Origin: Deltaproteobacteria bacterium TL4
GTDB lineage: Bacteria; SAR324; NAC60-12
Assembly: GCA_051382335.1 (NCBI GenBank)
Contig: JBBCAX010000096.1
Coordinates: 1 to 64,000 of the forward strand
DNA length: 64,000 nt
Direction: 5' to 3'
In this document: positions 668 through 27,322 of the stretch, piece by piece
Layout: the number at the start of each line of letters is the position of its first letter
How positions within the stretch are numbered: position 1 is the first letter of the stretch
The notes under the pieces: model-generated
What the model was told of the DNA's origin: nothing
Databases searched by the model: none
The model's input: only the letters and a program-made list of their open reading frames with translations
Made by a program: the position numbers and the translations under genes

Positions 668-1250
668 TACTATATCAATTGAACCCATTGATATATTAGT
701 TATTTTAATAATCCCATTATTACCAGTTTCTTTGAAATATGGACTTTTAAAAGCATATCCACTTTAATATATTCTGATAATGTTCCATTCCATTGTGCCT
801 CTTCCACAAACCACTGCCTAAAAAGCGTTTCCGCCATAGCTTCCAGCGTTTTGTTCTGTCTGTGGAGCAGATCGATCTTGTCGTCGAGGCTGGAAAGCAC
901 GGAGGCAATGGCTCGCTGTTCGGGGAGCGGGGGGAGAAAAATAGGAAATCGAGGCATATCAATAAGGGGAATTCTATCTACTGTCGTGCCAAAGACAGTT
1001 CTTTCCCTAATAATTGTTTGAAATTGTGGCACAAGATAATAATACAATAGAAATTTAGGTTCAACATGATCAAACTTTATGCGAAGTAATCCCATTCGCC
1101 TTCCTAGACAACAACGAAATCCTTTTGGTACAATTGAAGCCTCTCCAAGTCTTGTTTCATAAGAAAATAGAATATCATTTTCTTTAGGTTCACGCGTCGT
1201 GTCCATTTTTTATAGTCATCCTCAGAAAGATATTCAAACGATGAGGTATC
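668..1250 (-). pseudogene. hsdS: hsdS remnant: TRD1 nearly identical to intact hsdS, followed by the start of a different TRD2; frameshifted and interrupted by the IS
   Basis: About 800-1250 nearly duplicates about 10360-10810, with a 1-bp deletion near 1191. After LFRQWFVEEA it reads QWNGTLSEYIKV, then (other frame) GYAFKSPYFKETGNNGIIKITNISMGSID. Confidence 0.85.
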
Positions 1251-1952
1251 TTGCTCGTTATATTTTTTAATATCCAAGGCCAATGGCGGGGAGAGGGTTT
1301 TGGTCAAGAGCCTCACCTTGACGCCTGGTTTTCTTTTGGAAAGATGGAGCAAGACGGTATCATCAAGGTAGTTATCAATCAGCAGGATGGATTTTTCAGC
1401 GGAGCGGATGAGGTCAGACACAAACTGGTAGGCATCGAAGACCTGTCCCTCATAAAAGATGCCTTGTTTGGGTTGGACGCTTTTATGTTCCAGAGCGGAC
1501 AAAATCTGATCAATTTTTTGATCCGTTTGAATCTGCTTGATTTCCAGAGTGTCCAACCGTTGAAATACCTGGGCGTTAGCAAGCAGGAACTTTCTCATAG
1601 CTACAAAAGCGTTCATGATCTGAACGCTCACCTTAACGGCAGTTTCACTACGTAACACAGCAGAAAGCATGGCAACGCCTTGTTCGGTGAAGGTATAGGG
1701 CAAAGAGGTGGAGTGCTTTAGATTGGCGAACCGGTCACAATTTGTGACCAGTTCAATCGTTTCAAGATGAGTGAGTTGAAACCGGAATTGTTCAGGGAAA
1801 CGTGCGATGTTTCTTTTCACAGCTTGATTCAATCCTTTAGTTTCCACGTTGTATAGTTGAGCTAAATCACGGTCTATCATGACGTGTGTTCTACGAATCA
1901 TGAAAATATAGCTTTCGACAGGCATGAGTTCTGGTTTAACTATTGTGTTCAT
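1251..1952 (-). pseudogene. ORF6N-domain DNA-binding protein, 3'-truncated and fused into the hsdS remnant
   Basis: Motifs IRRTHVMIDRDLAQLYNVETKGLNQAVKRNIARFP and PYTFTEQGVAMLSAVLRS. The C-terminal part matches ORF 10936..11820 up to YNEQ, then jumps into hsdS sequence. Confidence 0.8.
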
Positions 1953-2090
1953 AATTTTATCCTCGCCAGGTTTTCAGCAATGGCCTGATTCAGAGCCGCT
2001 TCTTCTTTTAACTGCGCCTCAAACTCCGCTTTGAGTCCGGTAAACCGTTCCTTGAAATTAAAATCATCCTCATCATCGGGCAGCCCCACA
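1949..2090 (-). pseudogene. hsdM: Duplicated 3' end (~140 bp) of hsdM
   Basis: Near-identical to 3897-4038 ([45 protein letters not shown]). Its TGA overlaps the ATG of the ORF6N gene. Confidence 0.9.
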
Positions 2091-2170
2091 TTGGAATCAG
2101 GGGCATCCTTAAATCCTATGAATCAGGGTTCAGAAGGTTGAGAGGGAATTTCATTTCCACGCTCTCCAAC

Positions 2171-2534
2171 TTGAGGTCGCAATTTGCGACTTCAAGATTT
2201 TTTTATCGTTTGAGGTCACAATTTGTGACCTCAAGTTAGGCTGATCGTTTAAGGTCGCAATTTGCGACCTTAAAGAATCTGTCTTTGAGGTGCCAATTGG
2301 GTACTTCAAGTTCTGCTCTTCGTTTAAGGTGCCAATTGGGTTACTGGCCTAAGACGGGACAGACAGCATTTCAGTAGGTTGGGTAGAGCGGTAGCGAAAC
2401 CCAACATCCAGGCAGTAATATCCGTTTTTCGTTGGGTTTCGCTACGCTCTACCCAACCTACGTTTTTGTCCCACTTTAGACCGGTAGCCCCTTAAAGCTT
2501 CTTCTTTTTCTAAGGTCACAAATTGTGACCTTAG
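2171..2534 (-). repeat. Tandem array of six 25-bp palindromes, TT(G/A)AGGT..CAA.T.G..AC(C/T)T(C/T)AA, encoding ORF6N-type L[RK]SQ[IF][VA]T[SL] peptides
   Basis: Units start at 2171, 2210, 2249, 2285, 2324 (interrupted) and 2510, with periods of 39/39/36/39 bp. The minus strand is open: PIGTLNEEQNLKYPIGTSKTDSLRSQIATLNDQPNLRSQIVTSNDKKILKSQIATSS. Confidence 0.85.
2338..2490. mobile_element. MITE-like element with 24-bp TIRs enclosing a GTAG-type REP doublet (2374-2461)
   Basis: TIRs GGGTTACTGGCCTAAGACGGGACA and TGTCCCACTTTAGACCGGTAGCCC. Inner doublet GTAGGTTGGGTAGAGCGGTAGCGAAACCCAAC ... GTTGGGTTTCGCTACGCTCTACCCAACCTAC. Confidence 0.7.
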
Positions 2535-2559
2535 ACGATCAAATTCGTCATCCCAATCC

Positions 2560-2815
2560 GAGCGTCAAGCCGTTGAAAAATCTCGGCGTTGGAAGCAAGA
2601 AAACGGCGCATGGCCACAAAAGCACGCATGATCTGTATATTGACTTCAATCGCTCTTTCACTCGTAAGGACGGTGGAAATAGTGGCCACACCTTGTTCTG
2701 TAAAGACATACGGTAACGATCCTCCCAAATGCTGTCTGGAAGGTATCGCATTTTGCGAGACCATAAGGCCAACTTCTGCCTCTGTGAGTTGAAACATAAA
2801 ATCAGTTGGCATCAT
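2560..2815 (-). pseudogene. Internal fragment of an ORF6N-domain gene
   Basis: About 2562-2803 is nearly identical to about 11417-11658 (FMFQLTEAEVGLMVSQNAIP...FQRLDA). Both termini are missing. Confidence 0.85.
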
Positions 2816-2826
2816 CTAAGCATCCT

Positions 2827-3900
2827 TTAAGCCTCATCTTCACCCTCATTCTTTTGATGCTCCAGTCGTGCTTTGGCTTCAATCATTGCCTTATGTAACT
2901 TGGCTTGTAAAATGGCTTTTGGGGGTAATTGCAGCCAGTATTCCGCAATGTGGATATGGTCATGCTCCAAATCCAACAGTTCTATGACTTCAGTGTCTTT
3001 ACCGCCGCACAAAATAATGGCGATAGGTGAATTTTCATCGGGTTGTTGTTCGTATTTGGCGAGCCACTTGAGATAAAGCTCTACTTGTCCTTTGTACTCC
3101 GCTTTGAATTCACCCAGTTTAAGTTCAATCAGCACCAGACGTTTGAGTTTGCGGTGGTAAAATAGCAAGTCGATGTAGTAGTCATGGCTGCCAATCTGAA
3201 TACGTCGTTGACGGCTCAGAAAGGCAAAATCACTGCCCAGTTCGAGGATAAAACGCTCCAGTTCGGACAAAATAGCGTCTTCCAAGTCCTTTTCTGTGAA
3301 ATTATCTTTCAGGTCGAGGAAATCCAGGAGGTAGGGGTCTTTCAGGAACAACTGGGAGGTAACCGGTTTTTGTTGCTGTAAAAGAGCCAACTCCTGTTGA
3401 ATGAGGGCATCGGGTTGTTTTGAAATCGCTGTACGCTCGTACAACATGTTGTCCATGCGCTCCCTCAACAGACGTACTGACCAACGAGCATTGGCACACA
3501 TGCTGATATAAAATTCCCGCTTCACGTCATCTTCAATTTTAATGATCTCAACAAAGTGCGACCAACTTAATTGTTGTGACAGTGTCACAACAATCTCACG
3601 ATTAGGGAAATAGTCGTAAAATTTAGCCATTCGGGTCAAACTGGAATGACTAAACCCATTACCGTATTCATGGATAAGACGCTCAGCAAGCCGCTTGAGA
3701 ACAGACGCTCCATACTGAGCCCGATCCGTCTGTAAGACTTCTATTTTAATCATTTTCCCAATTTGCCAATAGGTCAGTACCAAGGCTTGATTGACCTGTG
3801 TAACGACATGGGCTTTGGCTTGTTCAATCAGTTGTTTGATGTCTTGATACAACGTGTCGATGGTTGCCGTTGTGAGAGGTTGTTGATCTAGCTGCTTCAT
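2827..3900 (-). CDS. YhcG/DUF1016-family PD-(D/E)XK nuclease-domain protein
   Basis: Motifs [44 protein letters not shown]...IELK. Confidence 0.9.
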
Positions 3901-5441
3901 AATTTTATCCTCGCCAGGTTTTCAGCAATAGCCTGATTCAGAGCCGCTTCTTCTTTTAATTGCGCCTCAAACTCCGCTTTCAAGCCGGTAAACCGTTCCT
4001 TGAAATTAAAATCATCCTCATCATCAGGAAGCCCCACATAACGTCCTGGGGTGAGCACATAATCCAACTCTTTGACCCGTTCGAGGCTGGCAGAATTACA
4101 GAATCCTTTGATGTCTTCGTACTTGCCATTGACCTTGCGCCATTCGTGATAGGTGTTGGTGACTTTATGGATGTCTTCTTCTGAAAGTTCCTTGGTTCGG
4201 CGGTTGATCAGATAGCCTTCGTTGCGGGCGTCGATAAATAAAATTTCATCAGTCCGGTTGCGGTAGCCGCCGTTGGCTTTATTACGGGAAAGAAACCAGA
4301 GACAGGCAGGAATCTGAGTGTTCAAAAACAACTTGGCAGGAAGGTTGACGATGCAGTCAACGAGATGCGCTTCAATCAGAGCCTTGCGGATCTCGCCTTC
4401 GCCAGAACTTTTGGAAGTGAGTGATCCCTTCGCCAGAACAAAGCCAGCGATCCCGGAGGGACTCAAGTGATAGAGAAAGTGCTGAATCCAGGCATAGTTG
4501 GCGTTTCCTGACGGAGGCGTTCCGTATTTCCATCGTCCATCTTTGCGCAAGAGGTCTCCTGACCAATCGCTGTCGTTAAAAGGAGGATTGGCAATGACAA
4601 AATCAGCTTTCAGGTCTTTATGACTATCATTGAGAAACGAGCCTTCGTTGTTCCATTTTACCTGTGAGCTGTCGATGCCACGAATGGCAAGGTTCATCTT
4701 TGCCAGTCTCCAGGTAGTCTGGTTGCTTTCCTGTCCGTAAATGGAGATGTCGTTCACTTTTCCCTGATGTGCTACCACAAACTTTTCCGATTGCACAAAC
4801 ATCCCGCCGGAACCACAGCAAGGGTCAAAAACACGTCCCTTATAGGGTTCCAGCATTTTAACCAGAAGTTCCACAATACTTCGTGGGGTGTAGAATTGTC
4901 CGCCCTGTTTTCCTTCAGCCAAGGCAAATTCACCCAGGAAATATTCAAATACATGCCCCAGCACATCGGCGCTTCGGGCTTTGACGTCACCCAGGGCGAT
5001 ATTGCTTACAAGATCAATCAGTCCGCCCAAACTGGTCGGGTCAAGATTGCCACGGGCAAATACTTTGGGGAGTACCTCTTTCAGAGAGGGGTTGTCTTTC
5101 TCGATGGCATCCATCGCCTGATCAACCTCTTTCCCGATGGTAGTTTGTTTGGCTTTGGCTTGCAGATAAGACCAGCGGGCAATTTCAGGCACGAAAAAAA
5201 CATTTTCCGCCTTGTACTCATCCTTGTCTTCCGGATCGGCTCCGGCATACTCGCCTATTCCGCTTTTCAGTTTTGAATGCAGTTCTTCAAACGAATCTGA
5301 AATGTATTTGAGAAAGATCAGACCAAGGACAATATGTTTGTACTCAGCGGCATCAATGTTTTTTCTAAGCTTGTCTGCCGCTTTCCAAAGCTGTTTTTCA
5401 ATCGCTTCTTCTTTGATACTGTTGTTATTTATTTTAGCCAT
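3897..5441 (-). CDS. hsdM: Type I restriction-modification methyltransferase subunit M
   Basis: Motifs [23 protein letters not shown] (SAM binding), ANPPFN (catalytic), LTPGRYVG; 514 aa. Confidence 0.97.
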
Positions 5442-5522
5442 TATTCATCTCCAGTTAAGGCTTTTCTTTGATTGCATTAGGCAGGACACCGAGTGTTCTT
5501 GAGGTTCGTTCGATTATAACAT
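5437..5522 (-). promoter_or_regulatory. hsdM leader with an extended -10-like TGTTATAAT and a GGAG RBS; duplicated at 13813-13898
   Basis: An ~86-bp near-identical direct repeat precedes both hsdM starts. TATAAT is at 5513-5518 and 13889-13894 on the minus strand. Confidence 0.55.
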
Positions 5523-5566
5523 ATTTTGTTGGCACTGGTTCCGGCTTACAACCCCTTTCAGTCAAA

Positions 5567-8500
5567 CTAACCCATCCTGGACAGTTCTTCGGCTATCAAT
5601 TCGGCTTGTTTTAATACAGTTTCTGTTGCCAGCCTCTGCATATCGGGCGGATAGCCGTATTGACGCAAAATTCGTTTTACTATGACTTTCAATTTTGCTT
5701 TTACGCTTTCCTTGATGGTCCAGTCAATCGAGGCGTTTTCCCTAACTTTTTCATAGAGAACCACCGCTAGTTCACGGAGTTTACCCTGTTCCATGACTTG
5801 CTTGGCGCTGTCATTGCTGGCGATAGCCGTGTAGAAAAGGCATATTCATAAGCGGATAACCCCATTTCCTGGGGTTCCTGATCCATTTCCCGAATTTCTT
5901 TGGAAAGCTTGATGAGTTCTTCAATCACTTCGGCTGCGGTGAGAATCTTGTTGTGATACTTCTTGATGGAGTTTTCCAGCATTTCCATCAAGGTTTTACT
6001 TTGAATCAGATTCTTTTTGGAACGGGACTTAATTTCATCATTGAGAAGTTTTTTTAAGACTTCCAGCGCAATGTTCTTATGCTCCATATTCTTGACTTCC
6101 AGAAGAAAGTCTTCCGAAATAATTGAAATATCTGGTTTTCTGATCCCTGCCGCATCAAAAATATCAATCACCTTTTCAGTAACCAGGGATTTGTCGATTA
6201 CCTGACGGATAGCCGTTTCAATCGCTTCATGGTTCTTTCCAGAGCCCGTAGTGTCAAATTTGAGGAGTCTTGATTTCACGGTCTGGAAAAAGGCAACTTC
6301 ATCTTTTACATCCATTGCCTGGTCGTGAGGAATCGCTATGGAAAAGGCTTGGGAAAGCGCCGTGACCTCATCAATGAAACGTTTCTTGCCATGATCCAGA
6401 CCAAGGATGTGTTCTTCGGCAGAAAGGATGAGGGCTAGTTTCCGCCCTGTATCCGCTTCAAAGTAAGGTTCATAGGCAAAACCGTGAAACATTTGGGAAA
6501 CCACCTCCAATTTTTCCAGCATAAGCTGTACAGCCTGCTCCTGAGCAACCGCAGGGTCGCCTTTGCCTCCAGAATCAGAATAAAAGGAAAGAGCCTTTTT
6601 CAGGTCAGAGGCGATGCCCAGATAATCAACAACCAATCCTCCGGTTTTGTCTTTATAGACACGATTCACACGGGCGATTGCCTGCATCAGGTTGTGACCT
6701 TTCATCGGCTTGTCAATGTAGAGCGTGTGCAGGGCAGGAACATCAAAACCGGTAAGCCACATATCCCGGACAATCACCAATTTCAGTTCATCTTCAGGAT
6801 CTTTCATTCTCTCGGCAAGGGAACGGCGCTGTTCCTTGGTGGTGTAGTGTTTCGCGATTTCGGGACCATCGGCGGAGTCCGAAGTCATGACTACTTTGAT
6901 GACGCCTTTTTTTAAGTCATCATGATGCCATTCCGGTTTCAACTCAATGATCGCCTTATATAATTCAGAGGCAATGCGACGGGACATGGTAACAATCATG
7001 CCCTTTCCATCCATGACTTCCTGACGTTGCTCAAAGTGGGCAATGATATCCTCGGCTACCTGTTTGATCCGGTCGGCACTACCGATGAGCGCTTCAAGCT
7101 GGGTCCACTTGACCTTCACTTTTTGAGTATCAGAAAAGTCATCCCGCACCAGATCCTCATCAAGGTCTTTTACCAGTTTCTTTCCTTCCTCCGATAAGGT
7201 GATTTTTGCCAGACGGCTTTCATAGAAAATCCGAACCGTTGCGCCGTCGAGAACCGCCTGTGAAATATCGTAAATATCCACATAGTTCCCGAACACTGCC
7301 GGGGTGTTGACATCGGTGCTTTCTATCGGGGTTCCGGTAAATCCCAGATAAGTCGCATTGGGTAGGGCATCGCGCATATATTTGGCAAAGCCATAGACGA
7401 TTTTTTTACCCACAATATTTCCGTCCTTGTCTTTATCATCAAGGGTTTTTGCCTTAAAGCCATACTGGGTACGGTGCGCTTCATCGGCAATGACGATGAT
7501 GTTCTTCCGGTCAGAAAGTTTCTCGTAGACATTCCCTTCTTCGGGTTGAAATTTTTGAATGGTCGTGAACACAACGCCGCCGGAAGCGACTTTCAGCAGG
7601 TCTTTCAACTGATCCCGGTTTTCGGCTTGTACCGGCTCCTGACGAAGGAGCTGTTTGGAAGCGGCAAAGGTATCGAAAAGCTGGTCATCCAAATCATTGC
7701 GATCCGTGATGACCAGAACCGTAGGATTATCCATAGCCAGAACTATTTTCCCCGCGTAAAAAACCATAGAGAGGGATTTCCCCGAACCTTGGGTATGCCA
7801 GACCACACCCCCTTTTCTATCTCCGACAGGCTGTGATTTGACGCCGGGGACTCCGTAACTTTCAGGAGATTCATAAATCATCATCATACCAGCCGGGAGA
7901 TCTTCCTTTTTGAGATAGCCGGATGCGCGCAGCGTGGATTCCACCGCCCGATTAACAGCGTAATATTGGTGATAGCCTGCCAGTTTCTTGACCGTTTGAA
8001 GTGTGATGATGCCCGTTTCTTTGTCTTCTTTTTTCGATTTTTCAAAGACGATGAAATGACGAATAAGATCCAGGAGCGTCCTTTTGTCCAGCATCCCTTT
8101 AATGAGTGTTTCCAACTGCCCGATCAGGGGAGAGGCTTCCGTCTTTCCATCAGAGCTTTTCCATGCCATAAAGCGGCTGAATCCGGCAGAAATGGAGCCG
8201 GCTTTTGCCTCAAGTCCATCAGAAATAATCAAAAATCCGTTGTAAGCAAACAGAGAGGGGATTGCCCGTTGGTAGGTTTGCAACTGCTTGAAGGCGGAAT
8301 GGATCGTGGTGTTTTCATCTGCCGCGTTTTTGAGTTCGATAACCACAAGAGGGAGGCCGTTTACAAAGAGAATGACATCAGGACGTTTGTTGACATGATT
8401 TTCAATAACGGTGAACTGATTGAGAACGACAAAATCATTATTTTCCGGGTCGTTAAAATCGATCAGCCAGACCAAATCTCCCCGACTGTTGCCCTCTTTT

Positions 8501-8802
8501 TGAAAGGTAACATTGATGCCTTCGGTCAGCATCCGATGAAAGGTTTCGTTGTTGGCAATGAATTCCGGTGAATTCAGTCTTTGAATTTGCTTGATGGCAT
8601 CCTCTCTGGAGTCTGCCGGAACAGAAGGGTTGATCCGGGAAACGGCATTTTTCAGTTTGTCCATCAGAAGAACCTCTTCAAAGGAGGTACGCTCCCGCAT
8701 GTCGCTATCGGGTGCGATGTCGGGACCGTAAAGATACAGGTAGCCTTGCTTTTCCAGAAGTTCGATGGCGAAGGTTTCGATGGAGGATTCGGTAAGTTTC
8801 AT
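5567..8802 (-). CDS. hsdR: Type I restriction endonuclease subunit R, frameshifted near its 3' end (~5835)
   Basis: Motifs RPDVILFVNGLPLVVIELK, WHTQGSGKS, DEAHR, FTGTP, DMWLTGFD, QAIARVNR. ORF 5767..8802 leaves frame at YEYAF, and the natural C-terminus (..IDWTIKESVKAKLK..YGYPPD) is in ORF 5567..5794. Confidence 0.92.
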
Positions 8803-9824
8803 CAGGGATGCTCTCGTTTCTCAAGTTGGTTGAGCTCCTTTTCCAATTCGGCCTTCAACTCCGCTTCACTGGGCAGGTACAGCTTATACTTGGAGGCGAA
8901 CAAGGTTTGATTGTTAATACGGGAATATTTCACTACCGCATCATTTTTATCACTGCACAGCACAATTCCCACAGTAGGGTTATCGTCCTCACTCTTTTGT
9001 GTCTCATCAAACAATCGCACATACATGTCCATTTGCCCCACATCCTGATGGGTCAGTTTGCCGGTTTTCAGATCAATCAATACAAAGCATTTGAGGAGAT
9101 AGTTATAAAAGACCAAATCCACATAAAAATGGTCGTCTTCCATCGTGATACGCTTTTGTCTGGCGACAAAGGCAAATCCCCGTCCAAGCTCCAGCAAAAA
9201 CTTTTGAATCTCATCGATTAACGCCTGTTCCAGATCGCTTTCATAGAGTCTGTCGTTTGGTCTGAGATTCAAAAATTCCAGCACATAGGGGTCTTTCACA
9301 AACTCTTGAGGCGTGTACTTTAGTTCCGTGGTGTTTTTATTGGCTTCCTCTTTCACTGCGGCGATGTCTTGGGAAAGCCGTAACCTCTCGTAATAATGCG
9401 AGTTGATTTGCCGCTCTAAGGCCCTCACGCTCCAATTGGATTTGACACATTCCTGAATATACCACTTTCTGGCGTTTGGGTTTTCCACCTTGAGAATCAG
9501 CAGGTAGTGGCTCCAGCTTAATTTGGCAGACAGTGTCTGCCAAATTGGAAAGCTGAGATAAAACCCTCGCATACTACGCAAATTTCGTTCACTAAAGCCT
9601 TTACCAAATTCTTTGCTCAGCCGAACACTCAGTCCTTGAATCAACCCCTCTCCATATTGAGCGCGCTCTTGGCCTTGCTGTTCCTCTTCCACAATCAACC
9701 GTCCGATATTCCAATAGGCTTCCACCATCGTGGAATTCACGCTTTGTTGTGCTTGGTAACGTGCCTTTTCAAGGGTTGTCTTAATTGATTCAAATAACAG
9801 GGAGTTTCCAGAAATCGCACTCAT
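8802..9824 (-). CDS. YhcG/DUF1016-family PD-(D/E)XK nuclease-domain protein
   Basis: Motifs YWNIG, LSWSHY, KDPYVLEFL, FLLELGRGFAFVARQ, DLVFYN...IDLK. Confidence 0.9.
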   Translation of the reverse strand: MSAISGNSLLFESIKTTLEKARYQAQQSVNSTMVEAYWNIGRLIVEEEQQGQERAQYGEGLIQGLSVRLSKEFGKGFSERNLRSMRGFYLSFPIWQTLSAKLSWSHYLLILKVENPNARKWYIQECVKSNWSVRALERQINSHYYERLRLSQDIAAVKEEANKNTTELKYTPQEFVKDPYVLEFLNLRPNDRLYESDLEQALIDEIQKFLLELGRGFAFVARQKRITMEDDHFYVDLVFYNYLLKCFVLIDLKTGKLTHQDVGQMDMYVRLFDETQKSEDDNPTVGIVLCSDKNDAVVKYSRINNQTLFASKYKLYLPSEAELKAELEKELNQLEKREHP

Positions 9825-10939
9825 ACCGCCACCCTCACTTCTCCACTCATCAGCTTGGGCAGGAGGGTGTCTCGGAGAGTTTCGAGGGTGCGGATTTGCT
9901 GTGAGTTTGCATATCGCTTTTTCTCGGCTGGTGCTACTGCTTCGGTAAATTTGTCAATCCGCCCTCTATCTGGGAATATAAATTCCGCATCATATAAACC
10001 ATCAATCGTTATTTGTGGCTGAGCCGACCCAGAAACATGGAGATTGAAATCATAAAAAGATGCCCAGTATTTCAAATACTCAAAGCTAATTTCCGGTCTT
10101 TTATTTCTCTCCAAGACCAACGAGTTATTTGTGACGAAGGACTTAGGAAAACTAATATTTACTTTCCCTGACGCTTCACCACGACATGATACCAACACCT
10201 GCGGCGCTTCGTATGTATACCGCTCATAAAACCCAATCTGACCATTCGCCCCGAAAACGGGGAACCCTTCATTTAGCAAAATCTTAGTCGGAAGATTTTT
10301 CCCATAGCTGATAGTCACGCAATCTCCCAGCTTTTCTATTTTCCTTCCCTCCTCCGCCTCTTCCACAAACCACTGCCTGAAAAGCGTTTCAGCCATCGCT
10401 TCCAGCGTTTTGTTCTGGCGGTGCAGCAGGTCGATCTTGTCGTCGAGGCTGGAAAGCACGGAGGCAATGGCGCGCTGTTCGGGGAGCGGGGGGAGAAAAA
10501 TAGGAAATCGAGGCATATCAATAAGGGGAATTCTATCTACTGTCGTGCCAAAGACAGTTCTTTCCCTAATAATTGTTTGAAATTGTGGCCCAAGATAATA
10601 ATACAATAGAAATTTAGGTTCAACATGATCAAACTTTATGCGAAGTAATCCCATTCGCCTTCCTAGACAACAACGAAATCCTTTTGGTACAATTGAAGCC
10701 TCTCCAAGTCTTGTTTCATAAGAAAATAGAATATCATTTTCTTTAGGTTCCACGCGTCGTGTCCATTTTTTATAGTCATCCTCAGAAAGATATTCAAACG
10801 ATGAGGTATCAATTTTTCCTTTGGTTAGGTTGGAAATACTGAGAAAAATTACACCTCTTGTTGTTTTAGCAGGTGTCGCATGAGGTCCATCAAATATCTC
10901 CGCCACATCCCCCAGTTTGCATTCCTTCCACTCGTTCAT
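9821..10939 (-). CDS. hsdS: Type I restriction-modification specificity subunit S
   Basis: Probable start MNEWKECKLGDV (ATGA overlap with the upstream gene). Central conserved region PPLPEQRAIASVLSSLDDKIDLLHRQNKTLEAMAETLFRQWF; terminal LRDTLLPKLMSGEVRV. Confidence 0.95.
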   Translation of the reverse strand: MNEWKECKLGDVAEIFDGPHATPAKTTRGVIFLSISNLTKGKIDTSSFEYLSEDDYKKWTRRVEPKENDILFSYETRLGEASIVPKGFRCCLGRRMGLLRIKFDHVEPKFLLYYYLGPQFQTIIRERTVFGTTVDRIPLIDMPRFPIFLPPLPEQRAIASVLSSLDDKIDLLHRQNKTLEAMAETLFRQWFVEEAEEGRKIEKLGDCVTISYGKNLPTKILLNEGFPVFGANGQIGFYERYTYEAPQVLVSCRGEASGKVNISFPKSFVTNNSLVLERNKRPEISFEYLKYWASFYDFNLHVSGSAQPQITIDGLYDAEFIFPDRGRIDKFTEAVAPAEKKRYANSQQIRTLETLRDTLLPKLMSGEVRVAV

Positions 10940-11820
10940 ACCAACCTCCCCAGCATTTCGATTGCGCCTATCTCCATCTTGGAAAACGCGAACCATTTTT
11001 TGCCAAGGTCTTTCAGGGACGCGCCAAAATGATAAACGGTTTGCTCATCAAGGATCATGAACCGATCATGGGCGTTCTTAAATTCCTGAATCTCCACAGA
11101 GGGGTATTGCTCGTTATATTTTTTAATATCCAAGGCCAATGGCGGGGAGAGGGTTTTGGTCAAGAGCCTCACCTTGACGCCTGGTTTTCTTTTGGAAAGA
11201 TGGAGCAAGACGGTATCATCAAGGTAGTTATCAATGAGGAGGATGGATTTTTCAGCGGAGCGGATGAGGTCAGACACAAACTGGTAGGCATCGAAGACCT
11301 GTCCCTCATAAAAGATGCCTTGTTTGGGTTTGAATTCTTTGGCTTCAAGTGCGTTAAAAATCTGTTCAAATTTCTGGTTGGTTTCTGCTTTGTACTCGAT
11401 CTGTCGCCTTTCCACAGCGTCAAGCCGTTGAAAAATCTCGGCGTTAGAAGCGATAAAGCGGCGCATTGCGACAAACGCACGCATGATCTGTATATTGACT
11501 TCAATCGCTCTTTCACTCGTAAGGACGGTGGAAATAGTGGCCACACCTTGTTCTGTAAAGACATACGGTAACGATCCTCCCAAATGCTGTCTGGAAGGTA
11601 TCGCATTTTGCGAGACCATAAGGCCAACTTCTGCCTCTGTGAGTTGAAACATAAAATCAGGAGGAAAGCGTTTTATATTTCTTTTGACCTGTTCTCTTAG
11701 CCTAATGGGTTTTACCTCATAGAAAAGAGCCAAATCTTTATCCAGCATCACTTGAACCCCACGAATGGTGTAGATTCTGTTTTGAATCAATTCATGGGTC
11801 ACCAACTCATTTTCACTCAT
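10936..11820 (-). CDS. ORF6N-domain DNA-binding protein with a PLD-like C-terminal region
   Basis: Motifs IRGVQVMLDKDLA, VKRNIKRFP.DFMFQLT, PYVFTEQGVA; C-terminal LIDNYLD...HDRFMILD...YHFGASLKDLGKKWFAFSK. Confidence 0.85.
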   Translation of the reverse strand: MSENELVTHELIQNRIYTIRGVQVMLDKDLALFYEVKPIRLREQVKRNIKRFPPDFMFQLTEAEVGLMVSQNAIPSRQHLGGSLPYVFTEQGVATISTVLTSERAIEVNIQIMRAFVAMRRFIASNAEIFQRLDAVERRQIEYKAETNQKFEQIFNALEAKEFKPKQGIFYEGQVFDAYQFVSDLIRSAEKSILLIDNYLDDTVLLHLSKRKPGVKVRLLTKTLSPPLALDIKKYNEQYPSVEIQEFKNAHDRFMILDEQTVYHFGASLKDLGKKWFAFSKMEIGAIEMLGRLV

Positions 11821-11834
11821 ATCGGATTCACCTT

Positions 11835-12088
11835 CTATAGCTCAATAGTTCGATGATTTCTGGAAATCACAACCGCTTGAATGGGTTGAGTATCCTTGGT
11901 TTCTTTCATCTGAAATTCACCGCTGTAATAGGGGTTTTCAGGATGATGGCTCATTTCCATGATGACAGGCGCCGTAATATGTTCATAGCCATCTTCGTAA
12001 CCGTCCGTTAAAACCAGCATATCTTCAGGGAATTTTTTAAAGCGTTAATCAATTCCAGAACAGTCAATGAATGTTTCATCTCAATCAT
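11835..12088 (-). pseudogene. Small hypothetical protein (~84 aa), apparently frameshifted in an A-run near 12033-12038
   Basis: Adding one A gives MIEMKHSLTVLELINALKKFPEDMLVLTDGYEDGYEH..., joining the start that overlaps the yhcG stop to ORF 11835..12020. Confidence 0.5.
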
Positions 12089-13166
12089 GACGGACTCCCA
12101 TTTCAGCAAGTTCTTTTTCCAGATCTTCAATACTGGGCAGACTGGGCTTCAAGTTGTCGGGTAATGTGTGAGTAAGCTGGTATTCTGAAACACCGATGGG
12201 TTTATGGATGTCACTCAGAGCATATTCAGCAACCAGTTGATCCTTGCTTTTACACAATAGAATTCCAATAGTCGGTTGGTCGCCTTCCTGTCGATATTGA
12301 CAGTCAACCGCTTTTATATAGAAATTCAGTTTTCCTGCGTGCTCTGGCTCAAAGTTCGTTGTTTTTAACTCAATGACCACATAACAGTGCAGCCGTGTAT
12401 GATAAAACAATAAATCAATAAAAAATTCACGATCACCCACTTTGAGCGGAAGTTGTCTGCCGATATAAGCAAACCCTGCCCCAAGTTCCAGTAAAAAATG
12501 CGTTATATGCTGGATCAGCTCTTTTTCCAGTTCCAGTTCATTTAAATCTTTGGTCAGGGTTAAAAAATCAAAAATGTAGGGATCTTTCAATATCTGAACA
12601 GCAAGATCAGACTGAGGTTTGGGCAATGTTGAAGCAAAGTTGGTAACAGATTTCCCTTCCCGCTCATAAAGATCACTTTCCATCTGATGGACAAGAACAC
12701 TGCGGCTCCAGTTATAAGTTATGGTATTTTGTACATAATACAGAGCTTCCTCCAGGTTTTTACATTTGGAGATGATAGCAATATTGTGCCCCCAGGGGAT
12801 TTGGGTTAGTTGGCCAACAACCTGTCGGCTAATTGTTTTTTCTAATTGGGCAACAGCTTGTTGCCCAATTGTCATTTTGGGATTATAAAACAAAAACCAC
12901 TGACGCATATATTTAATATTTCGCTCTGAAAATCCTTTCATCTCAGGGAATTCCTCCTGCAAATCAATACTCATCTGTTGGATAAAACTATCACCCCACG
13001 CCGACTGTTTTTGCTTTTCCACAAGGCGTTCAGCCAAATCCCAATAAAGGCGCAAAAGTTTTCGATTCACGGCAACTGCCGCTTTAATTTGAACGGTTTG
13101 GATACGTTGTTTAATGTCTCGGATAAACTCTTTGTAATCTTTTGTTTTTACAATGTTTCCACTCAT
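12081..13166 (-). CDS. YhcG/DUF1016-family PD-(D/E)XK nuclease-domain protein
   Basis: Motifs KAAVAVN, GFSERNIKYMRQ, IPWGHN, WSRSVL, KDPYIFDFL, FLLELGAGF, DLLFYH...VIELK. Confidence 0.9.
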   Translation of the reverse strand: MSGNIVKTKDYKEFIRDIKQRIQTVQIKAAVAVNRKLLRLYWDLAERLVEKQKQSAWGDSFIQQMSIDLQEEFPEMKGFSERNIKYMRQWFLFYNPKMTIGQQAVAQLEKTISRQVVGQLTQIPWGHNIAIISKCKNLEEALYYVQNTITYNWSRSVLVHQMESDLYEREGKSVTNFASTLPKPQSDLAVQILKDPYIFDFLTLTKDLNELELEKELIQHITHFLLELGAGFAYIGRQLPLKVGDREFFIDLLFYHTRLHCYVVIELKTTNFEPEHAGKLNFYIKAVDCQYRQEGDQPTIGILLCKSKDQLVAEYALSDIHKPIGVSEYQLTHTLPDNLKPSLPSIEDLEKELAEMGVRHD

Positions 13167-13817
13167 ACCAGCTTCACCTTTTTCAGATTTTCCAAGATCA
13201 GCACGTTCAGTTTTTCCTCTTCCTTCAATTGCGCTTCAAACTCCGCTTTGAGTCCGGTAAACCGTTCCTTGAAATTAGAATCATCCTCATCATCAGGAAG
13301 CCCCACATAACGTCCTGGGGTGAGCACATAATCCAACTCTTTGACCCGTTCGAGGCTGGCAGAAAATCAGCTTTCAGATCTTTATGACTATCATTGAGAA
13401 ACGAGCCTTCGTTGTTCCATTTTACCTGTGAGCTATCGATGCCACGAATGGCAAGGTTCATCTTGGCTAGTCTTTAGGTAGTCTGGTTGCTTTCCTGTCC
13501 GAAAATGGAGAGGTCGTTCACTTTTTCCTGATGCGCGACCACAAGCTTTTCCGATTGCACAAATATCCCGCCGGAACCGCAGCAAGGGTCAAAAACACGT
13601 CCCTTATAGGGTTCCAGCATTTTAACCAGAAGTTCCACAAGACTTCGTGGGGTGTAGAATTGTCCGCCTTGTTTTCCTTCAGCCAAGGCAAATTCACCCA
13701 GGAAATATTCAAACACATGCCCCAGCACATCGGCGCTTCGGGCTTTGGCATCACCCAGGGCGATAGCTGTTTTTCAATCGGTTCTTCTTTATTCCCATTG
13801 TCTTTGGTTTTGGCCAT
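13163..13817 (-). pseudogene. hsdM: hsdM pseudogene with two internal deletions and a nonsense codon
   Basis: Segments match hsdM 3897-5441. Deletion junctions lie near 13764 (~390 bp lost) and 13363 (~500 bp lost, including NPPF). TGG>TAA at 13474-13476. The C-terminus is divergent (EEEKLNVLILENLKKVKLV). Confidence 0.92.
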
Positions 13818-14102
13818 TATTCATCTCCAGTTAAGGCTTTTCTTTGATTGCGCCAGGCAGGACACCGAATGTTCTTAAGGTTCGTTCGATTATAACATTT
13901 TGTCTTTTTCCTTCATTTAGTGCAGCCTTCAGCGCCCACCTAATCGTTAGATAAGCAGAAACTCACACGCTACGTGAATCCGGAAATGGTGGCTCAATAA
14001 TTCTAGAAGTCCTAGCTGTTTCATGAATCCCAGTAGCAACGGTACATCGTCCAGACGCTCTACTTGCGGGATTTGTGGTGTGTCCATTCGGGGAGTTTAA
14101 TC

Positions 14103-14226
14103 GGGGTTGCCTCTAAGTTCGTCCATTTTGATGATAGCCCTGGGTTTCGTCCCAGGGGATACTGTGTATATTGTTCCTCGGGACGAAACCCGAGGCTACC
14201 CCTGGCCGAAGTTAGACACAACCCCG
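14103..14226. mobile_element. MITE-like element with 23-bp TIRs and an internal REP-like doublet
   Basis: TIRs GGGGTTGCCTCTAAGTTCGTCCA and TGGCCGAAGTTAGACACAACCCC. Flanking direct repeat GTTTAATC at 14095-14102 and 14227-14234. Inner TAGCCCTGGGTTTCGTCCCAGGGG / CCTCGGGACGAAACCCGAGGCTA. Confidence 0.75.
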
Positions 14227-14300
14227 GTTTAATCCATTTTCTTAACTTGGACAATTTTTTAGTGAACCGTCAGTAAAAGAGAAATTATTTAATGCTTGTC

Positions 14301-15641
14301 CTAAGCACTTAAGCGTAACTTGATGAAGCTTTCAAGATCACTCGCTTCAGGAGGGCCTACGAGGACTTTCCAGCCTGGAAGCCCTTCTTCCAGTTCACCG
14401 CTAATTTGCGCGACATAACCCGGGATCACAATAACGCGGGAAGTGATTTCCTGCTCTAACTTAACTGCCTTTATGAATTTGGCAACCGAGGAACCTGAGA
14501 ATTTTCCCGCGGCCCACGCTGTAAGGACACTCATGCCTTCACATTCAGGGACAACCAGCCAGGCGCTGATGCCGCTATTTTCAATCTCCCCTGAAACAAT
14601 AAAGTAGGTTAATGAAAAGTTAGTGGTTAAAAACACAGGGGAACTGGCGTTAGGTTCTCCGATGGGATATACTTTGGGCTCAACCTGAATCGGTTTTTGA
14701 GGATCCGTAAAGATATTCAAACGTAAGGTCATTAAAGAAACCAACTGTGCGGGTTCAAAAGATGGCAGCACGCAAATCCCGCCATACTTCGTGATTTCGT
14801 TCAGGGCCGCTATCGTTTCTTCCAGAACGTCTCCAGCTTTCAGAAACTTCAGGCTGGGATAGCCGAGCGGTTTGAAATTGTCTTTCAACGCGGCTCGACG
14901 TGAAATGGAATTAACCTGGAACTGTTCGGCAAGAGAGTGGGTCTCGAACTGCAAAATTAAATGATTAAAACCATCATCCTTCAGCTTGGAAGTCAAAGCC
15001 ACCAACTGATTCAAATCCGGTGCGGTCACCGCCAGAGCATGTTCGTTTTCTTTGGCGATCACGTGTAATTCCTCAACCGTCTCCGCTGTCGCCGCGGATA
15101 GTACGCTTCGGGAGCCTTTCACCGCTTTGGCTGCTTCTGCTAAAGCTTTGGGATCATGACTACTCAGCACTAAAGGACGTTGTACGGTTTCCCAGGCTTT
15201 TTTCGCAAGCGCGACAAAGGGTTCTACGCGGTTACTGAGTTGCGTGATGGCAACCATATCCACACGCAGAACTTCGCCTACCCGTTCCAGGACGTAATCC
15301 CGTACACGGTTCAACGTACTTTCCACAACTTCAGGGGAATCGGTGTCGTTGAGATTCACAGCAAAAGCGGTTTGGTTGACAAAGGTTTTTTCATGCCGAT
15401 AAAGTACCGTTTCTTCTCCAAGTTTTAAGGCTTTATCAGGCCCCAACTCAAGACCTTTGACAGGGGGTTCGCTTGCGGCGCCTAAAACCTGTTTTGCTTC
15501 ATCCGAGGCATAAGGGCATTCGGAAAGGTCGGCTTTTTTCGCGGCCAATTTCATGGCAAAGGCCAGGCAGGTATTGGAGTTGCATTCTTTGCAGTTGGTG
15601 TTGGGAAGAAGTTTATGAATTTTTAATCCTGTAAGAGCCAT
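14301..15641 (-). CDS. acsC: Corrinoid iron-sulfur protein large subunit (ACS complex gamma)
   Basis: N-terminal LPNTNCKECNSNTCLAFA...CP 4Fe-4S motif; GEETVLYRHEKTF; IFTDPQKP; TTNFSLTYF; SVLTAWAAGKF. Confidence 0.95.
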   Translation of the reverse strand: MALTGLKIHKLLPNTNCKECNSNTCLAFAMKLAAKKADLSECPYASDEAKQVLGAASEPPVKGLELGPDKALKLGEETVLYRHEKTFVNQTAFAVNLNDTDSPEVVESTLNRVRDYVLERVGEVLRVDMVAITQLSNRVEPFVALAKKAWETVQRPLVLSSHDPKALAEAAKAVKGSRSVLSAATAETVEELHVIAKENEHALAVTAPDLNQLVALTSKLKDDGFNHLILQFETHSLAEQFQVNSISRRAALKDNFKPLGYPSLKFLKAGDVLEETIAALNEITKYGGICVLPSFEPAQLVSLMTLRLNIFTDPQKPIQVEPKVYPIGEPNASSPVFLTTNFSLTYFIVSGEIENSGISAWLVVPECEGMSVLTAWAAGKFSGSSVAKFIKAVKLEQEITSRVIVIPGYVAQISGELEEGLPGWKVLVGPPEASDLESFIKLRLSA

Positions 15642-15668
15642 AATCGTAATACTTTTAATTGTTAAGAG

Positions 15669-18600
15669 TTAGACCGCTTTTCCGTCCATTAATTTATAAA
15701 TGGTTCTTTTGGTCGCCATTGCTGCTTCAGGGTGATACATGATCAACAGATCCGCACCGGCATACAACAAGTTAACCGCCGTGGATAGTTCCCACAAGGC
15801 CGCTCTTTTTGCCAAATCACCCCATTCAGGAAATTCAGCTTCAGACGCTTTCAATTCTTTGATTTTGATGCACTCCTGCCCTGTGGTTACAATCATGGGG
15901 GCCGCCAGCATTTTATCGCCACCCAGACCAGTCAAACGGATACGCTCCATGACAGAGTAGGTGTATTCGATGCCATACCCCATCGCGCCTGTCATCGGAT
16001 CAACCACAATTTGTTCCGGTTTGACATCCATGTTGGTTAACAAAATATTGAGTTGTTTCGCGATGTTGACATCAATAGGACTTTGAGCGACCACGGTATG
16101 TCCATAAGCAATCGCCGCACCGGCAATGGTTCGGTAGTTGTCTTGTTCTACCCAGTTGAAAAGCAGATTTTCCCCGGCGGTTGCCTGTGCCACCGCTTTC
16201 ATCACTTCGTTGTTTTTGTCAAAATGATTATGTCCTGTGATGATCAAAGGGACATCCACCGCGGCCAAAACAGACTTCACCAATTTAACGGATTCTTCCG
16301 GACTGCGGTTTCCCTTTTCAGGGTGAGTTCCATCCAATCGAACACTGATCAGGTCCGCTCCATATTTGTGGACACAGACCTTTGCCATTTCAGCGGGGTT
16401 CCGCAACAGGTCTCCATAAACAGTTCTGAGGATTTGAGGGAATTTCTCACTGATGACATCAAAAACTTCCATTGCGACCAAAGGACGGTGAGGCATTTCT
16501 CCTTCCCAAAGATGAAAAGGCATACAGGAAGCACCCCCAAGGGTAAGGCTTTTTTTCCGTGTTCCCCCTTCACTTTTGGACGCGCCCAGTTTAACCGTCC
16601 AAATAGGAATTTCACAGGATTCTTTCCGTACATGGAACGCATTGATTTCCCTCACCCGTTCTTCAGCGGTGGGTATTCCTGCTGCTGGAATAAAAACGGC
16701 TGTTTGTTCTGGAATTACCGACTGATTGATTTCCACAAGCGGCTGTTTTTCTGCGACGGGAATTGGTTCTCCCAAAAACTTTTGACTGAGTGTTCCAATA
16801 ATATCCCGTACAATTTCCTGAGTAATGCTTTGTTTCAAGTCCTTGCTCAATTCGGCCATAATTTGAGTCTTCATTTGCAGGATCAAGTCTGGCGTTAAAG
16901 CTTGCACGGCCTCTGCCGTGGGGGCACCTTTTTCCTGAGGAGTCGGATTTGGTGTGGGTAGATCCTTCTTTGCGGAGACTTGGGGTGTTTTATTTTCAAC
17001 CCTGGTTTGAGGTTCAGCGGAAGACACGCCCGAATCCATAAAGAGGCTCATATCCTCCATTTTTAAGGCAGGATGATCGACCTGTTCCAAATAAGACCGG
17101 AGTGAATGGGCATCCGTGACGATGGTTTCGTCAGCGATTTTATCAAAAAGACCGGTGTGACCTTCTTCATCAATTCGTCGATTGATATCATTTCCTAATA
17201 GTTCTTTCAGTTCTTTGGGCATCCACACCAAACGTTGAAAACCCCCTTCCGCAAACAGAAATTTCTTGGACGTTAAAAAGACCTTTCCCACCCCCATAAA
17301 TCCTGGTGTCTGTTGTCCTCCCCCGACGCTTCCCGCTAAAGTTGAAAAGGACATTCCTACCGGCGTATCTCCCTGAAACTCACGGTTGACAACCATCACC
17401 CCATTACATTCGGGAACGTAGGCGCAAATAGCTTCGAAACAGCCACAACTGGTCATTGGACGGTCCATGATGGAGTAAGCGCAAAAGTTTTCTATTGTTT
17501 TGTGGCTGTTGCTGTAAACGTACTCATTCACACCGGCCCAAATGCCTTTTACGGCGTCCAGACAGTCCCCTTTTTTAACAGGCTGATTCGGCCCTGTTTC
17601 ATCAATTTCATAAGCGGCTTTACCATCCAGCCAATTATACGCGCCGCATAAGCCCAGTCGTTCAGGGGTAATAATGCACACATGATTTGGCGCGAAAGAC
17701 TGACACAGCAGGCATGAATAAAACAGCTCCACGGAGTCATCGGTCATGGCTTCCAAGCGACGATTACGTTCATCATAGATCTTTCGTGCCACAACCAAAC
17801 GTTTTTCCACTTCGTCTTTTTCAGTAACCAAAGTGACTTTGACTTTATCAACAATGGCCGGATAATCGGATAAGAATTTGGCATGGATGATTTCTGCGTA
17901 AGCTTTCAGCCTTAACCCTCGCTTAAAACCATCGTTGGAAATACGGGTCCAGACAATATCCCGTTGTCCCATGTGCCAGATTCCCTCCGCGCCGTTAATC
18001 AGGTGGTGAATCTGACGCTCCAGAATAGGCTCAAAATCCGACTGCATTTTTCGGCCTGCGACTTCCACCCAGATCGCCAGAGGCAACGCTCCGCCCTCTT
18101 CCACATCCTCAATATCAGGACCAATGATTTCAATTTCACCGTCATTGATTTGGTCGATTGAAACCGAAGTCACAAATTCAAAGGCGGTGGTCCTGTTTCC
18201 TCCGAATTCAATCCGAGCGTCTTTTTTACGAATACGTTCCCCCTCAAAGGCAGGGCCATAAGCCACAGGTATGGGAACTTTCGTGATTTTAATTTTGCAT
18301 CCTCGAACCTCCAGGGCTTTTTCGACCATGGATTCATGAGGTACTTGGGAAACGACATGTTCGTAGGTACAGACTCCGGTCGGTAAAATTTCTGGAATAT
18401 CGGTATCGGAAATAACAGGAAATCCGTAATTGATCGCTCCTGCCGCAAGGGCGTATTTATCAGGAGTGACCTCACCGAACGCGAGGACAAAAGCAAAAAT
18501 GCGGTTTTTGTTGTACCTTAAGTTTGACTCAAAATCCCCGGGTTTTACGCCACCAAAGGAAAGAGCGGCCCGATTGGCAAATCCCAGAGCGTAGATCAAC

Positions 18601-26987: not shown

Positions 26988-27322
26988 AAGGCCTCCTGAG
27001 TGAAGATTGAACGCTTAGTGTTCATGTCTGGATGGACACGGAACCTACCTAACCCAAAGTCAGGCTGTGAGTAGATGTACAGGGGCATTTAAAAAATGGT
27101 AAGGTAATCAGTGCTGAATGAAAAGCTGTTTAGCTTATACCTGGGCGCGGGTTAGTCACTTTATCGCCTTACAAAGGTCTGGATTTTAGGTCCTGGACCT
27201 AAAATCTAAATCTTCGTTCAGGAAAAGAGGGGTTCACTCATCTTTAGCAAAAAAAGCACCCATACTGATTGGAACCATCTATGAAAACCATCTAAATTTC
27301 AAGGGGAAAAGAAGGATTGGTG

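Follow-up and report, generated by a model that had tools for sequence, protein, structure and literature searches.

The window analyzed in this study, a stretch of 64,000 nucleotides from Deltaproteobacteria bacterium TL4, carries at positions 700-13900 a type I restriction-modification cluster. Its accessory genes are three DUF1016_N-YhcG genes, two full ORF6N genes with PLD-like tails, and one ORF6N fragment. In the cluster, hsdM, hsdS, and ORF6N are partly duplicated (80-98% identity), and the part from 700 to 2830 is a deletion-ridden duplicate, in which the 3' end of the duplicated hsdM (1948..2091, minus strand) is 95% identical to 3896-4039. The first ORF6N gene (1104..1952, minus strand) has lost part of its PLD-like tail, which is joined to an hsdS fragment near 1250. 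The second gene (10936..11820, minus strand) is intact and encodes a PLD-like C-terminal domain, for which the PF13091 score is below the cut-off. The fragment (2531..2815, minus strand) is 97% identical to 11416-11660 over positions 2561-2805, and its recognition helix (see below) is deleted. The PF10543 scores of 1104-1952, 2531-2815, and 10936-11820 are 97.3, 40.4, and 102 bits, respectively (gathering cut-off 27.8), and these three are the only ORF6N matches in the whole genome, all of them in the window. For the DNA-binding part of the window ORF6N proteins, Pfam gives ORF6N only, and no initiator family was matched. In the PADLOC profiles, the window ORF6N proteins, including those of both full genes, match PDC-S05 (E 1e-119 to 1e-29), and the DUF1016 proteins match PDC-S02 (DUF1016/YhcG, E down to 1e-156).

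All three ORF6N copies contain a palindrome. That of the 1104-1952 gene (1728..1754, centre 1741) includes the core GGTCACAAATTGTGACC, which, as the initial annotation of this DNA had noticed, is read there as LVTNCDRF. The MVSQNAIP palindromes reported for the remaining copies were found in the fragment (2740..2764, centre 2752) and in the intact gene (11595..11619, centre 11607). Throughout the window, ten centres pair at 11 or more of 12 arm positions, compared with zero to one in each of ten triplet shuffles, and eight of the ten fall in ORF6N genes, the array described below, or DUF1016_N genes. The three neighbouring DUF1016_N-YhcG genes carry such palindromes too, which the initial annotation had missed: at 3570..3594 (gene 2827-3900, read as IVVTLSQQL), at 9520..9546 (gene 8802-9824, IWQTLSAKL), and at 12844..12870 (gene 12081-13166, IGQQAVAQL), the last followed by a second, degenerate unit.

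Six further units form an array, at 2171..2195 (centre 2183; the 3'-most on the coding strand), 2210..2234 (centre 2222), 2249..2273 (centre 2261), 2285..2309 (centre 2297), 2324..2337 (centre 2336), and 2510..2534 (centre 2522). They start where the initial annotation had placed them, and the spacings between their centres (39, 39, 36, 39, and 186) are all multiples of 3; all six share one minus-strand frame. Most are palindromic as had been proposed, but the unit at 2285 is imperfect and that at 2324 is a half palindrome only, consisting of one arm, the remainder of which was displaced by the insertion of a 153-bp repeat (2338..2490). This repeat carries inverted repeats at its ends and, further in, an inverted pair of the GTAG type (2374-2390 / 2445-2461); the genome has 16 near-full copies, this one included. 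Likewise, the minus-strand frame, described as staying open, is open over 2151-2336, but beyond it the 153-bp repeat brings stops. The array had furthermore been regarded as lying in frame inside a working ORF6N gene. In fact it lies outside any intact gene; the fragment 2531-2815 is in a different frame, with its stop codon within unit 6. What remains is a coding relic (2151..2561, minus strand) with the peptides DDEFDR LRSQFVTL ... LKYPIGTS, LRSQIATL, LRSQIVTS, and LKSQIATSSW, from which the 5' half and the PYxFTEQG part are gone.

With the array peptide (2151-2336, minus strand) as the query, 64 longer database proteins were found, all of which carry PF10543, and the linkers of these arrays resemble those of the window (for example, P0001: HLRSQIATLNDGSNWRSQIVTSNDGSN...EDKILKSQFATSSWGG). 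Since the units and linkers of the window array all differ from one another and homologous arrays occur in these 64 proteins, an assembly artefact is unlikely. In the public sequencing runs, one DNA run matched, with 0.08 of the words, and no RNA run was listed; the contigs compared were short pieces of other organisms. A CRISPR-like or cassette spacer array was considered and rejected: the repeats vary by specificity class, and the 11-14 bp linkers code for ORF6N-like linker peptides. By a pattern search of 301 genomes we found three clusters of units, two of them non-coding (periods 38, 40, 34, and 29) and one in frame (period 42); both coding and non-coding clusters thus exist. The spacings in the window, unlike those of the non-coding clusters, are all multiples of 3, and therefore the window array appears, from its sequence, to be left over from an ORF6N gene in which six units, belonging to three specificity classes, stood in frame and which the mobile 153-bp repeat later split.

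The palindrome is a property of the family. A protein search gave 290 ORFs that matched the ORF6N profile, of which 265 were parsed and 206 were unique. In 202 of these 206 genes, the same loop contains a 25-bp palindrome (at least 9 of 12 arm pairs), whereas control stretches of equal length had one in 12/206 cases downstream and 3/206 upstream. The excess over codon-shuffled controls, on which the annotation had staked its case, was clear: 10.6 pairs on average against 7.3 in the synonymous-codon null, with p of 0.05 or less in 190/206 genes. The named records of this set cover 22 phyla, archaea included, and in three phylum samples ORF6N was present in 21/88, 33/121, and 27/151 genomes. The palindrome is read in the LRSQ frame in 188 genes and in the VTNCD frame in 14.

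Covariation between the arms was analyzed in 190 frame-0 genes, after two were dropped (one under the threshold and one mis-centred). Pair 4 is complementary in 188/190 genes, compared with 75.6 expected for independent arms, and occurs as G-C (87), A-T (78), and C-G (23). Together with the use of two frames (188 and 14 genes), this complementarity upholds the earlier view that selection acts on the DNA rather than the peptide and that the palindrome is a cis site. Peptide conservation as the cause was rejected on the basis of the two reading frames and the silent-site rule described below. Pair 1 (complementary in 94/190 genes) and the central three bases are relaxed. The outer pairs 10-13 are complementary in 188, 159, 161, and 124 of the 190 genes, against 145, 117, 98, and 61 expected, and no protein column was found as their covarying partner; therefore, another factor adds symmetry there.

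The bases of the palindrome follow the residues of the predicted recognition helix. The half-site goes with residue 43: CGCA with E43, CACA with Q43, GCCA with R43, and TCCA with K43 (E with CG in 178/180 half-sites, Q with CA in 165/170, R with GC in 28/32, and K with TC in 16/18). With K39, both arms have G at pair 7 in 50/51, 14/14, and 6/6 genes of three classes. At pair 9, R42 goes with G (19/20 and 5/5) and N42 with A (52/59, 23/38, and 16/18), and K42 is context-dependent, with opposite preferences by class (G in 29/34 with Q43, A in 7/7 with E43). Two proteins with the helix KYLKQA break the rule. Corrected mutual information connects residues 43 and 40 with pairs 4-5, residue 39 with pairs 7-8, and residue 42 with pair 9. 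Of the disjoint closest gene pairs, 52 have G-C at pair 4 in one member and A-T in the other, and the two members differ at residues 40 and 43 in 52/52; the change is E to Q in 50 and the reverse in none, and no column outside the helix behaves likewise. The rule is valid in both reading frames, and the silent position of a Ser codon follows the class (TCG in 81/82 genes with E43, TCA in 77/78 with Q43). Because this silent position is fixed and the rule holds in both frames, it does not reflect protein-protein covariation.

In the window, the rule holds for both genes whose helix is intact. In the 1104-1952 gene, the predicted recognition-helix codons 39-44 (KGLNQA; 1821..1838, minus strand) have K39, N42, and Q43, which predict the half-site AGGTCACA; each arm of its palindrome matches at 7/8 positions. 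In the 10936-11820 gene, codons 39-44 (IRLREQ; 11689..11706, minus strand) have I39, R42, and E43, which predict GTATCGCA, and its arms match at 8/8 and 7/8. By the same rule, array units 1 and 3 (2171 and 2249) are of the CGCA class (E43 type), and units 2 and 6 (2210 and 2510) are of the CACA class, matching the site predicted for the 1104-1952 protein at 8/8 positions in both arms. Units 4 and 5 (2285 and 2324) are of the GCCA class (R43 type), and the genome is without any R43-class ORF6N gene. A scan of the whole genome gave one further site, which was weak (C17:44671); the scan also overlooked the 1741 site and is therefore not exhaustive.

The rule was applied to held-out sequences. Of 120 proteins, two were removed (one in the training set, one unparsed), and 115 of the remaining 118 fit; the misses are one misparsed two-domain protein and two real exceptions. 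New loci gave 82 ORF matches, from which 29 (training copies or unparsed, including divergent phage-type members) and five duplicates were dropped. The palindrome was present in 48/48 of the genes kept; among the 45 with a single unit, both arms fit in 41 (E 17/17, Q 19/19, K 1/1, and R 4/8). Pair 7 was G-G in 29/29 held-out genes with K39 and in 0/16 with other residues. Since unparsed divergent members were left out, the rule is shown for the FQL/FTEQG subfamily only. Avoidance of a shared site between paralogs was not significant: 0/23 pairs share a 6-base half-site, against a background of 6%.

Since the site changes in step with a putative DNA-reading helix, it is most likely that the gene itself is bound by the protein it encodes. 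Selection probably acts on a double-stranded, sequence-specific target of that protein rather than on the nucleic-acid hairpin that had been proposed at first: the symmetric changes at pairs 4, 5, 7, 8, and 9 follow four helix residues, and mismatches on the coding strand show no G-T excess (36 G-T and 34 A-C, that is, equal). It could still be supposed that the palindrome acts as a DNA hairpin or cruciform, serving as a nicking, recombination, or insertion site for another enzyme, with the link to the helix as a by-product. For intact units, the predicted DNA hairpins are stable, with loops of three bases and energies from -7.6 to -11.9 kcal/mol, pair 1 is relaxed as a loop would be, the outer pairs covary without a protein partner, and copies within genes are more symmetric than those upstream of genes (asymmetric in 5/204 and 8/32, respectively). 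However, this explanation leaves unaccounted for the modular prediction of bases by four helix residues, in held-out genes too. Furthermore, the deletion junctions of the duplicate at 700-2830 lie at short shared words away from the palindromes, which also speaks against the earlier suggestion of a recombination or insertion site. An mRNA hairpin specifically is excluded by the absence of a G-U bias on the coding strand, and no Rfam family came near its gathering score. We therefore consider the hairpin as the main object unlikely, although the covariation of the outer pairs may leave room for hairpin or template-switch effects besides readout by the protein.

The position of the helix was predicted from a structure model built from a 12-sequence alignment (mean pLDDT 84). 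The model has a helix at residues 27-33, a turn, and a helix at 38-51, with residues 39-43 at the start of the latter, and the palindrome codes for a peptide in an insertion, modelled with low confidence, that separates strands 57-59 and 86-89. Helix 38-51 is placed as the recognition helix by weak fold likeness over residues 22-103: the matches to DNA-bound MerR/Xis-type winged helices have Z scores of 4.5-6.4 and rmsd of 2-4, under the reliability level, and the fold matches list MerR/Xis-type and Ski-like helices. Foldseek gave no match for the model at E 0.001, and a sequence search of solved structures gave no relative, with six chance matches. Weak likeness to ORF6N (Z 4-5.3) is seen in pSK1 Par (8csh), RacA (5i41), BldC, and TnrA/GlnR; unlike these MerR/Xis-type proteins, ORF6N has a 25-residue insertion in the wing, which holds the palindrome-coded peptide.

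Among the best fold matches are RacA (Z 4.5) and the DNA-binding domain of pSK1 Par in complex with centromere DNA (Z 5.3, rmsd 2.2, 53 aligned), and it might be asked whether the protein binds its own site as the centromere- or origin-like tether of a small selfish cassette, as do pSK1 Par, RacA, and RepC, and not for autoregulation or defence. The long C-terminal helix of the model and the resemblance of the tandem sites to iterons or centromeres would suit such a tether, as would RepC of repABC plasmids, whose origin lies inside its own gene and lacks iterons (PMC3155836). On the other hand, most genes have one site, the genome scan (which overlooked the 1741 site) gave a single weak site elsewhere, and the genes are chromosomal accessory genes, with several per locus having different sites. 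This possibility seems slightly more doubtful still than a hairpin. PLD-like tails were found in 53/186 ORF6N loci, and a restriction-modification gene within the flank in 11/186.

Linkage was also considered as a source of the rule. In 172 genes, silent sites between the helix and the palindrome carry at most 0.09 bit on class, compared with 0.95 bit for residues 40 and 43; thus, the rule is not simple linkage. On a tree built without the helix, residue 43 changed in 21/21 class-switching sister pairs and was kept in 38/41 non-switching pairs, the other three being gaps. A tree of 200 ORF6N domains, poorly supported, gives about 48 class switches. In the strict independent-pairs test on starred branches, 5/5 pairs were concordant (p 0.0625); because only these five pairs are well supported, the independence of the switches is not formally established. 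One allele pair, L246/L257, is identical in the domain outside the helix and has many base differences from -258 to +8 around the site, so that its class was switched by a block swap covering helix and site. Such a swap, and the small number of well-supported pairs, could suggest that alleles have exchanged ancient blocks in which helix and palindrome are inherited together, with template switching keeping the symmetry and no protein-DNA contact, but the low information of the intervening silent sites, the recurrence of the K39 and R42 rules across residue-43 classes, and the survival of the link through a frame change make this very improbable.

We now return to the site as one read by the encoded protein. 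That it can accumulate in tandem inside ORF6N genes, as the annotation had supposed, is borne out by intact database genes with such arrays; among the matches listed, most proteins carry two to nine in-frame units between FQL and PYxFTEQG. The arrays mix specificity classes. An own-class unit was present in 42/42 distinct arrays scored, which, because of this mixing, is a weak test, and one array family was found with helices of three classes. An array growing beside the helix as a record was rejected, since the first unit is of the own class in only 13/42 arrays and the last in 23/42. In six discriminating short arrays (L261, L284, L302, L447, L460, and L481), the 3'-most unit is of the own class, and these are too few to build on. 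A relaxed helix in array genes was considered: R40 together with Q43 occurs in 7/62 array proteins and 0/201 training genes, but also in 4/120 held-out proteins. In copies in front of genes (n = 32), own-class half-sites were not enriched (27/64 compared with 24.3 by permutation, p 0.31), which speaks against a simple promoter-operator loop; these copies were accordingly rejected as cognate operators. From this lack of enrichment and the mixed-class arrays, the extra copies look like banks of several addresses and not like duplicates of the gene's own site. A scan of viral contigs for tandem units found none. A scan of viral contigs with the 17-bp core gave many intergenic terminator-like matches, which were kept out of the statistics.

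DUF1016_N, a domain unrelated to ORF6N, shares this layout. A sample of 100 matches (31 unparsed and two duplicates) left 67 genes to be scored, and the loop before the SWSH motif has at least 9 of 12 pairs in 58/67 genes, compared with 3/67 controls, in some of them as arrays. For 40 genes with a single unit, the highest-ranking columns for pairs 5-7 lie in the helix, at positions i, i+4, and i+7 (best z 5.4, by statistics that ignore phylogeny). We regard this putative helix link as a lead.

Taken as a whole, the explanation that each ORF6N gene encodes its own cognate site, and that the window array is what remains of one such gene, now dead, appears to us fairly probable. An ORF6N gene would encode a winged-helix DNA-binding domain and also hold, approximately 30 codons downstream of the recognition helix, a 25-bp site with two-fold symmetry; the loop containing this site would have a peptide nearly free to vary. 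A dimer very probably reads the double-stranded palindrome via residues 39, 40, 42, and 43, so that each protein would bind its own gene. Of the options listed earlier, an operator for the gene's own protein is the one favoured by the data, and autorepression or self-immunity is our best guess as to the purpose of self-binding. The bound protein might block or titrate its own expression or activity, and thereby keep a candidate defence protein quiet while the gene is present; we regard the chances of this step as evenly balanced. The proteins silenced in this way would often be nuclease-fused, and control would work by roadblock or titration. Frequent switching of specificity would allow sister genes to be regulated apart. 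Tandem units are likely to have arisen by unequal recombination between ORF6N alleles, to have been tolerated in frame, and to have become mixed in class, the window array being a dead remnant located in the decayed copy of a type I restriction-modification cluster.

A more speculative extension, which is rather unlikely though less so than a hairpin or a tether, would make the gene the antidote to its own product. The cognate site would hold the ORF6N protein (and, independently, the DUF1016_N/YhcG protein) inactive, and loss or degradation of the DNA, or the arrival of a sister protein with another address, would release the effector. The in-frame banks would then consist of foreign addresses, absorbing sister proteins or letting the helix change its specificity without losing a site, and address switching would be driven by conflict. 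If true, more than 20 phyla would share a new class of toxin-antidote or immunity-group system made of protein and DNA.

Repressor sites inside coding sequences are known as intragenic roadblock operators, such as the PurR site in purB and lac O2. Unlike the ORF6N site, these lie in another gene, and they are not known to evolve together with their reader within a single open reading frame. Lambda O has its target within its own coding sequence, where the iterons are tandem, in-frame inverted repeats. RepC and lambda O are similar to ORF6N in that the target lies in the own coding sequence and can be lineage-specific, but ORF6N has no sign of a replicon and usually has one site, inside the own loop of the DNA-binding domain. 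In ParB/parS and Noc/NBS, the site is palindromic, and four residues at the interface determine specificity (Jalal et al. 2020, PMC7383237); their sites are dispersed or clustered outside the codons of the domain and their specificity is stable within families, in contrast to ORF6N. A target inside the reader's own gene (PMC3155836) and four-residue specificity codes (PMC7383237) are already known. A switchable site inside the DNA-binding domain, together with mixed-specificity in-frame banks, was not found in the literature searched, in which subscription journals were thinly covered and supplements lay outside.

The nearest tested case, by analogy, is BstA, an abortive-infection protein with a DNA-binding domain, whose cognate DNA element aba overlaps its own gene and whose protein-element pairs are homologue-specific (Owen et al. 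2021, PMC8585504). The aba element is 63 bp long, has terminal direct repeats, and lies at the start of the gene; direct binding by BstA is not demonstrated in that study (PMC8585504). ORF6N resembles it in having a cognate element that overlaps the gene (41/45 held-out genes, for ORF6N by covariation alone), and differs in that aba, as described there, has neither a palindrome in the domain nor a residue-to-base code. As for the PADLOC profiles, we noticed no cis site in the definitions of PDC-S05 and PDC-S02, and the PDC-S05 gene reported to cut plating about 1000-fold has a Virulence_RhuM domain and not ORF6N (10.1101/2024.09.26.614923).

If the proposed self-recognition is correct, the binding site of any member of two common domains of unknown function could be read from its own gene. 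The families would then supply thousands of naturally matched pairs of helix and site, related by a residue-to-base code that is nearly one-to-one, from which orthogonal repressors could be made. One could also test how protein and site together get across a specificity valley, for which the mixed arrays may be stepping stones, and whether the DNA of candidate defence genes controls them, as aba does BstA.

The 153-bp repeat (2338-2490) that splits unit 5 of the ORF6N palindrome array has terminal inverted repeats of the form GGG..CCC and an inner inverted pair of the GTAG type. There are 16 near-full copies of this repeat in the genome, the majority of which are embedded in a larger conserved flank, and GCCAA directly precedes three of its insertions. 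Another repeat family, about 130 bp long and present dozens of times in the genome, is represented at 14091-14234 of the window. Positions 3-667 are the end of a DUF6399 transposase-like gene, the final 127 bases of which are found again at 12 contig ends or interiors. In the type I restriction-modification cluster, hsdR (5567-8802) is broken near its 3' end into two open reading frames (5767-8802 and 5567-5794), and of a second hsdM (13163-13900) only deleted fragments survive. Beside the cluster (14301-21165) are genes whose products resemble subunits of acetyl-CoA synthase and the corrinoid iron-sulfur protein, judging from their sequence motifs.

In the ORF6N set, 127 of the 147 short proteins have an (I/V)G(F/Y) motif at the C-terminal end, which is reminiscent of the ClpP-docking IGF loop. 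At four of the collected loci (L185, L303, L169 and L259), three to four short ORF6N genes lie in tandem, each with a different palindrome, and one genome (G091) has nine ORF6N matches. The N-terminal extension of three array proteins (P0005, P0008 and P0057) encodes an additional unit in the other frame (EVANCDLK, EITICDIK).

Palindromes were also observed in other settings. Beyond the restriction-modification cluster, the window has two more strong odd-centred palindromes (27182-27206 and 48324-48348). Bro-N-like genes at L089:293-309 and L148:862-888 have a similar palindrome immediately ahead of a GG/G-K motif, with the peptides LGSQIATSG and SVDTNLMSTDG; at L148, both genes are preceded by related palindromes. 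Many of the viral-contig matches of the 17-bp core of the array palindrome (L004-L122) are intergenic hairpins between A and T runs, resembling bidirectional terminators.

Each of the three DUF1016_N-YhcG genes in the window has its own coding palindrome (3570-3594, 9520-9546 and 12844-12870). A coding palindrome is also present in 58 of 67 DUF1016_N relatives, and some of these have in-frame arrays. There is a hint that a helix code, in which helix residues predict bases of the palindrome, may apply in this family.
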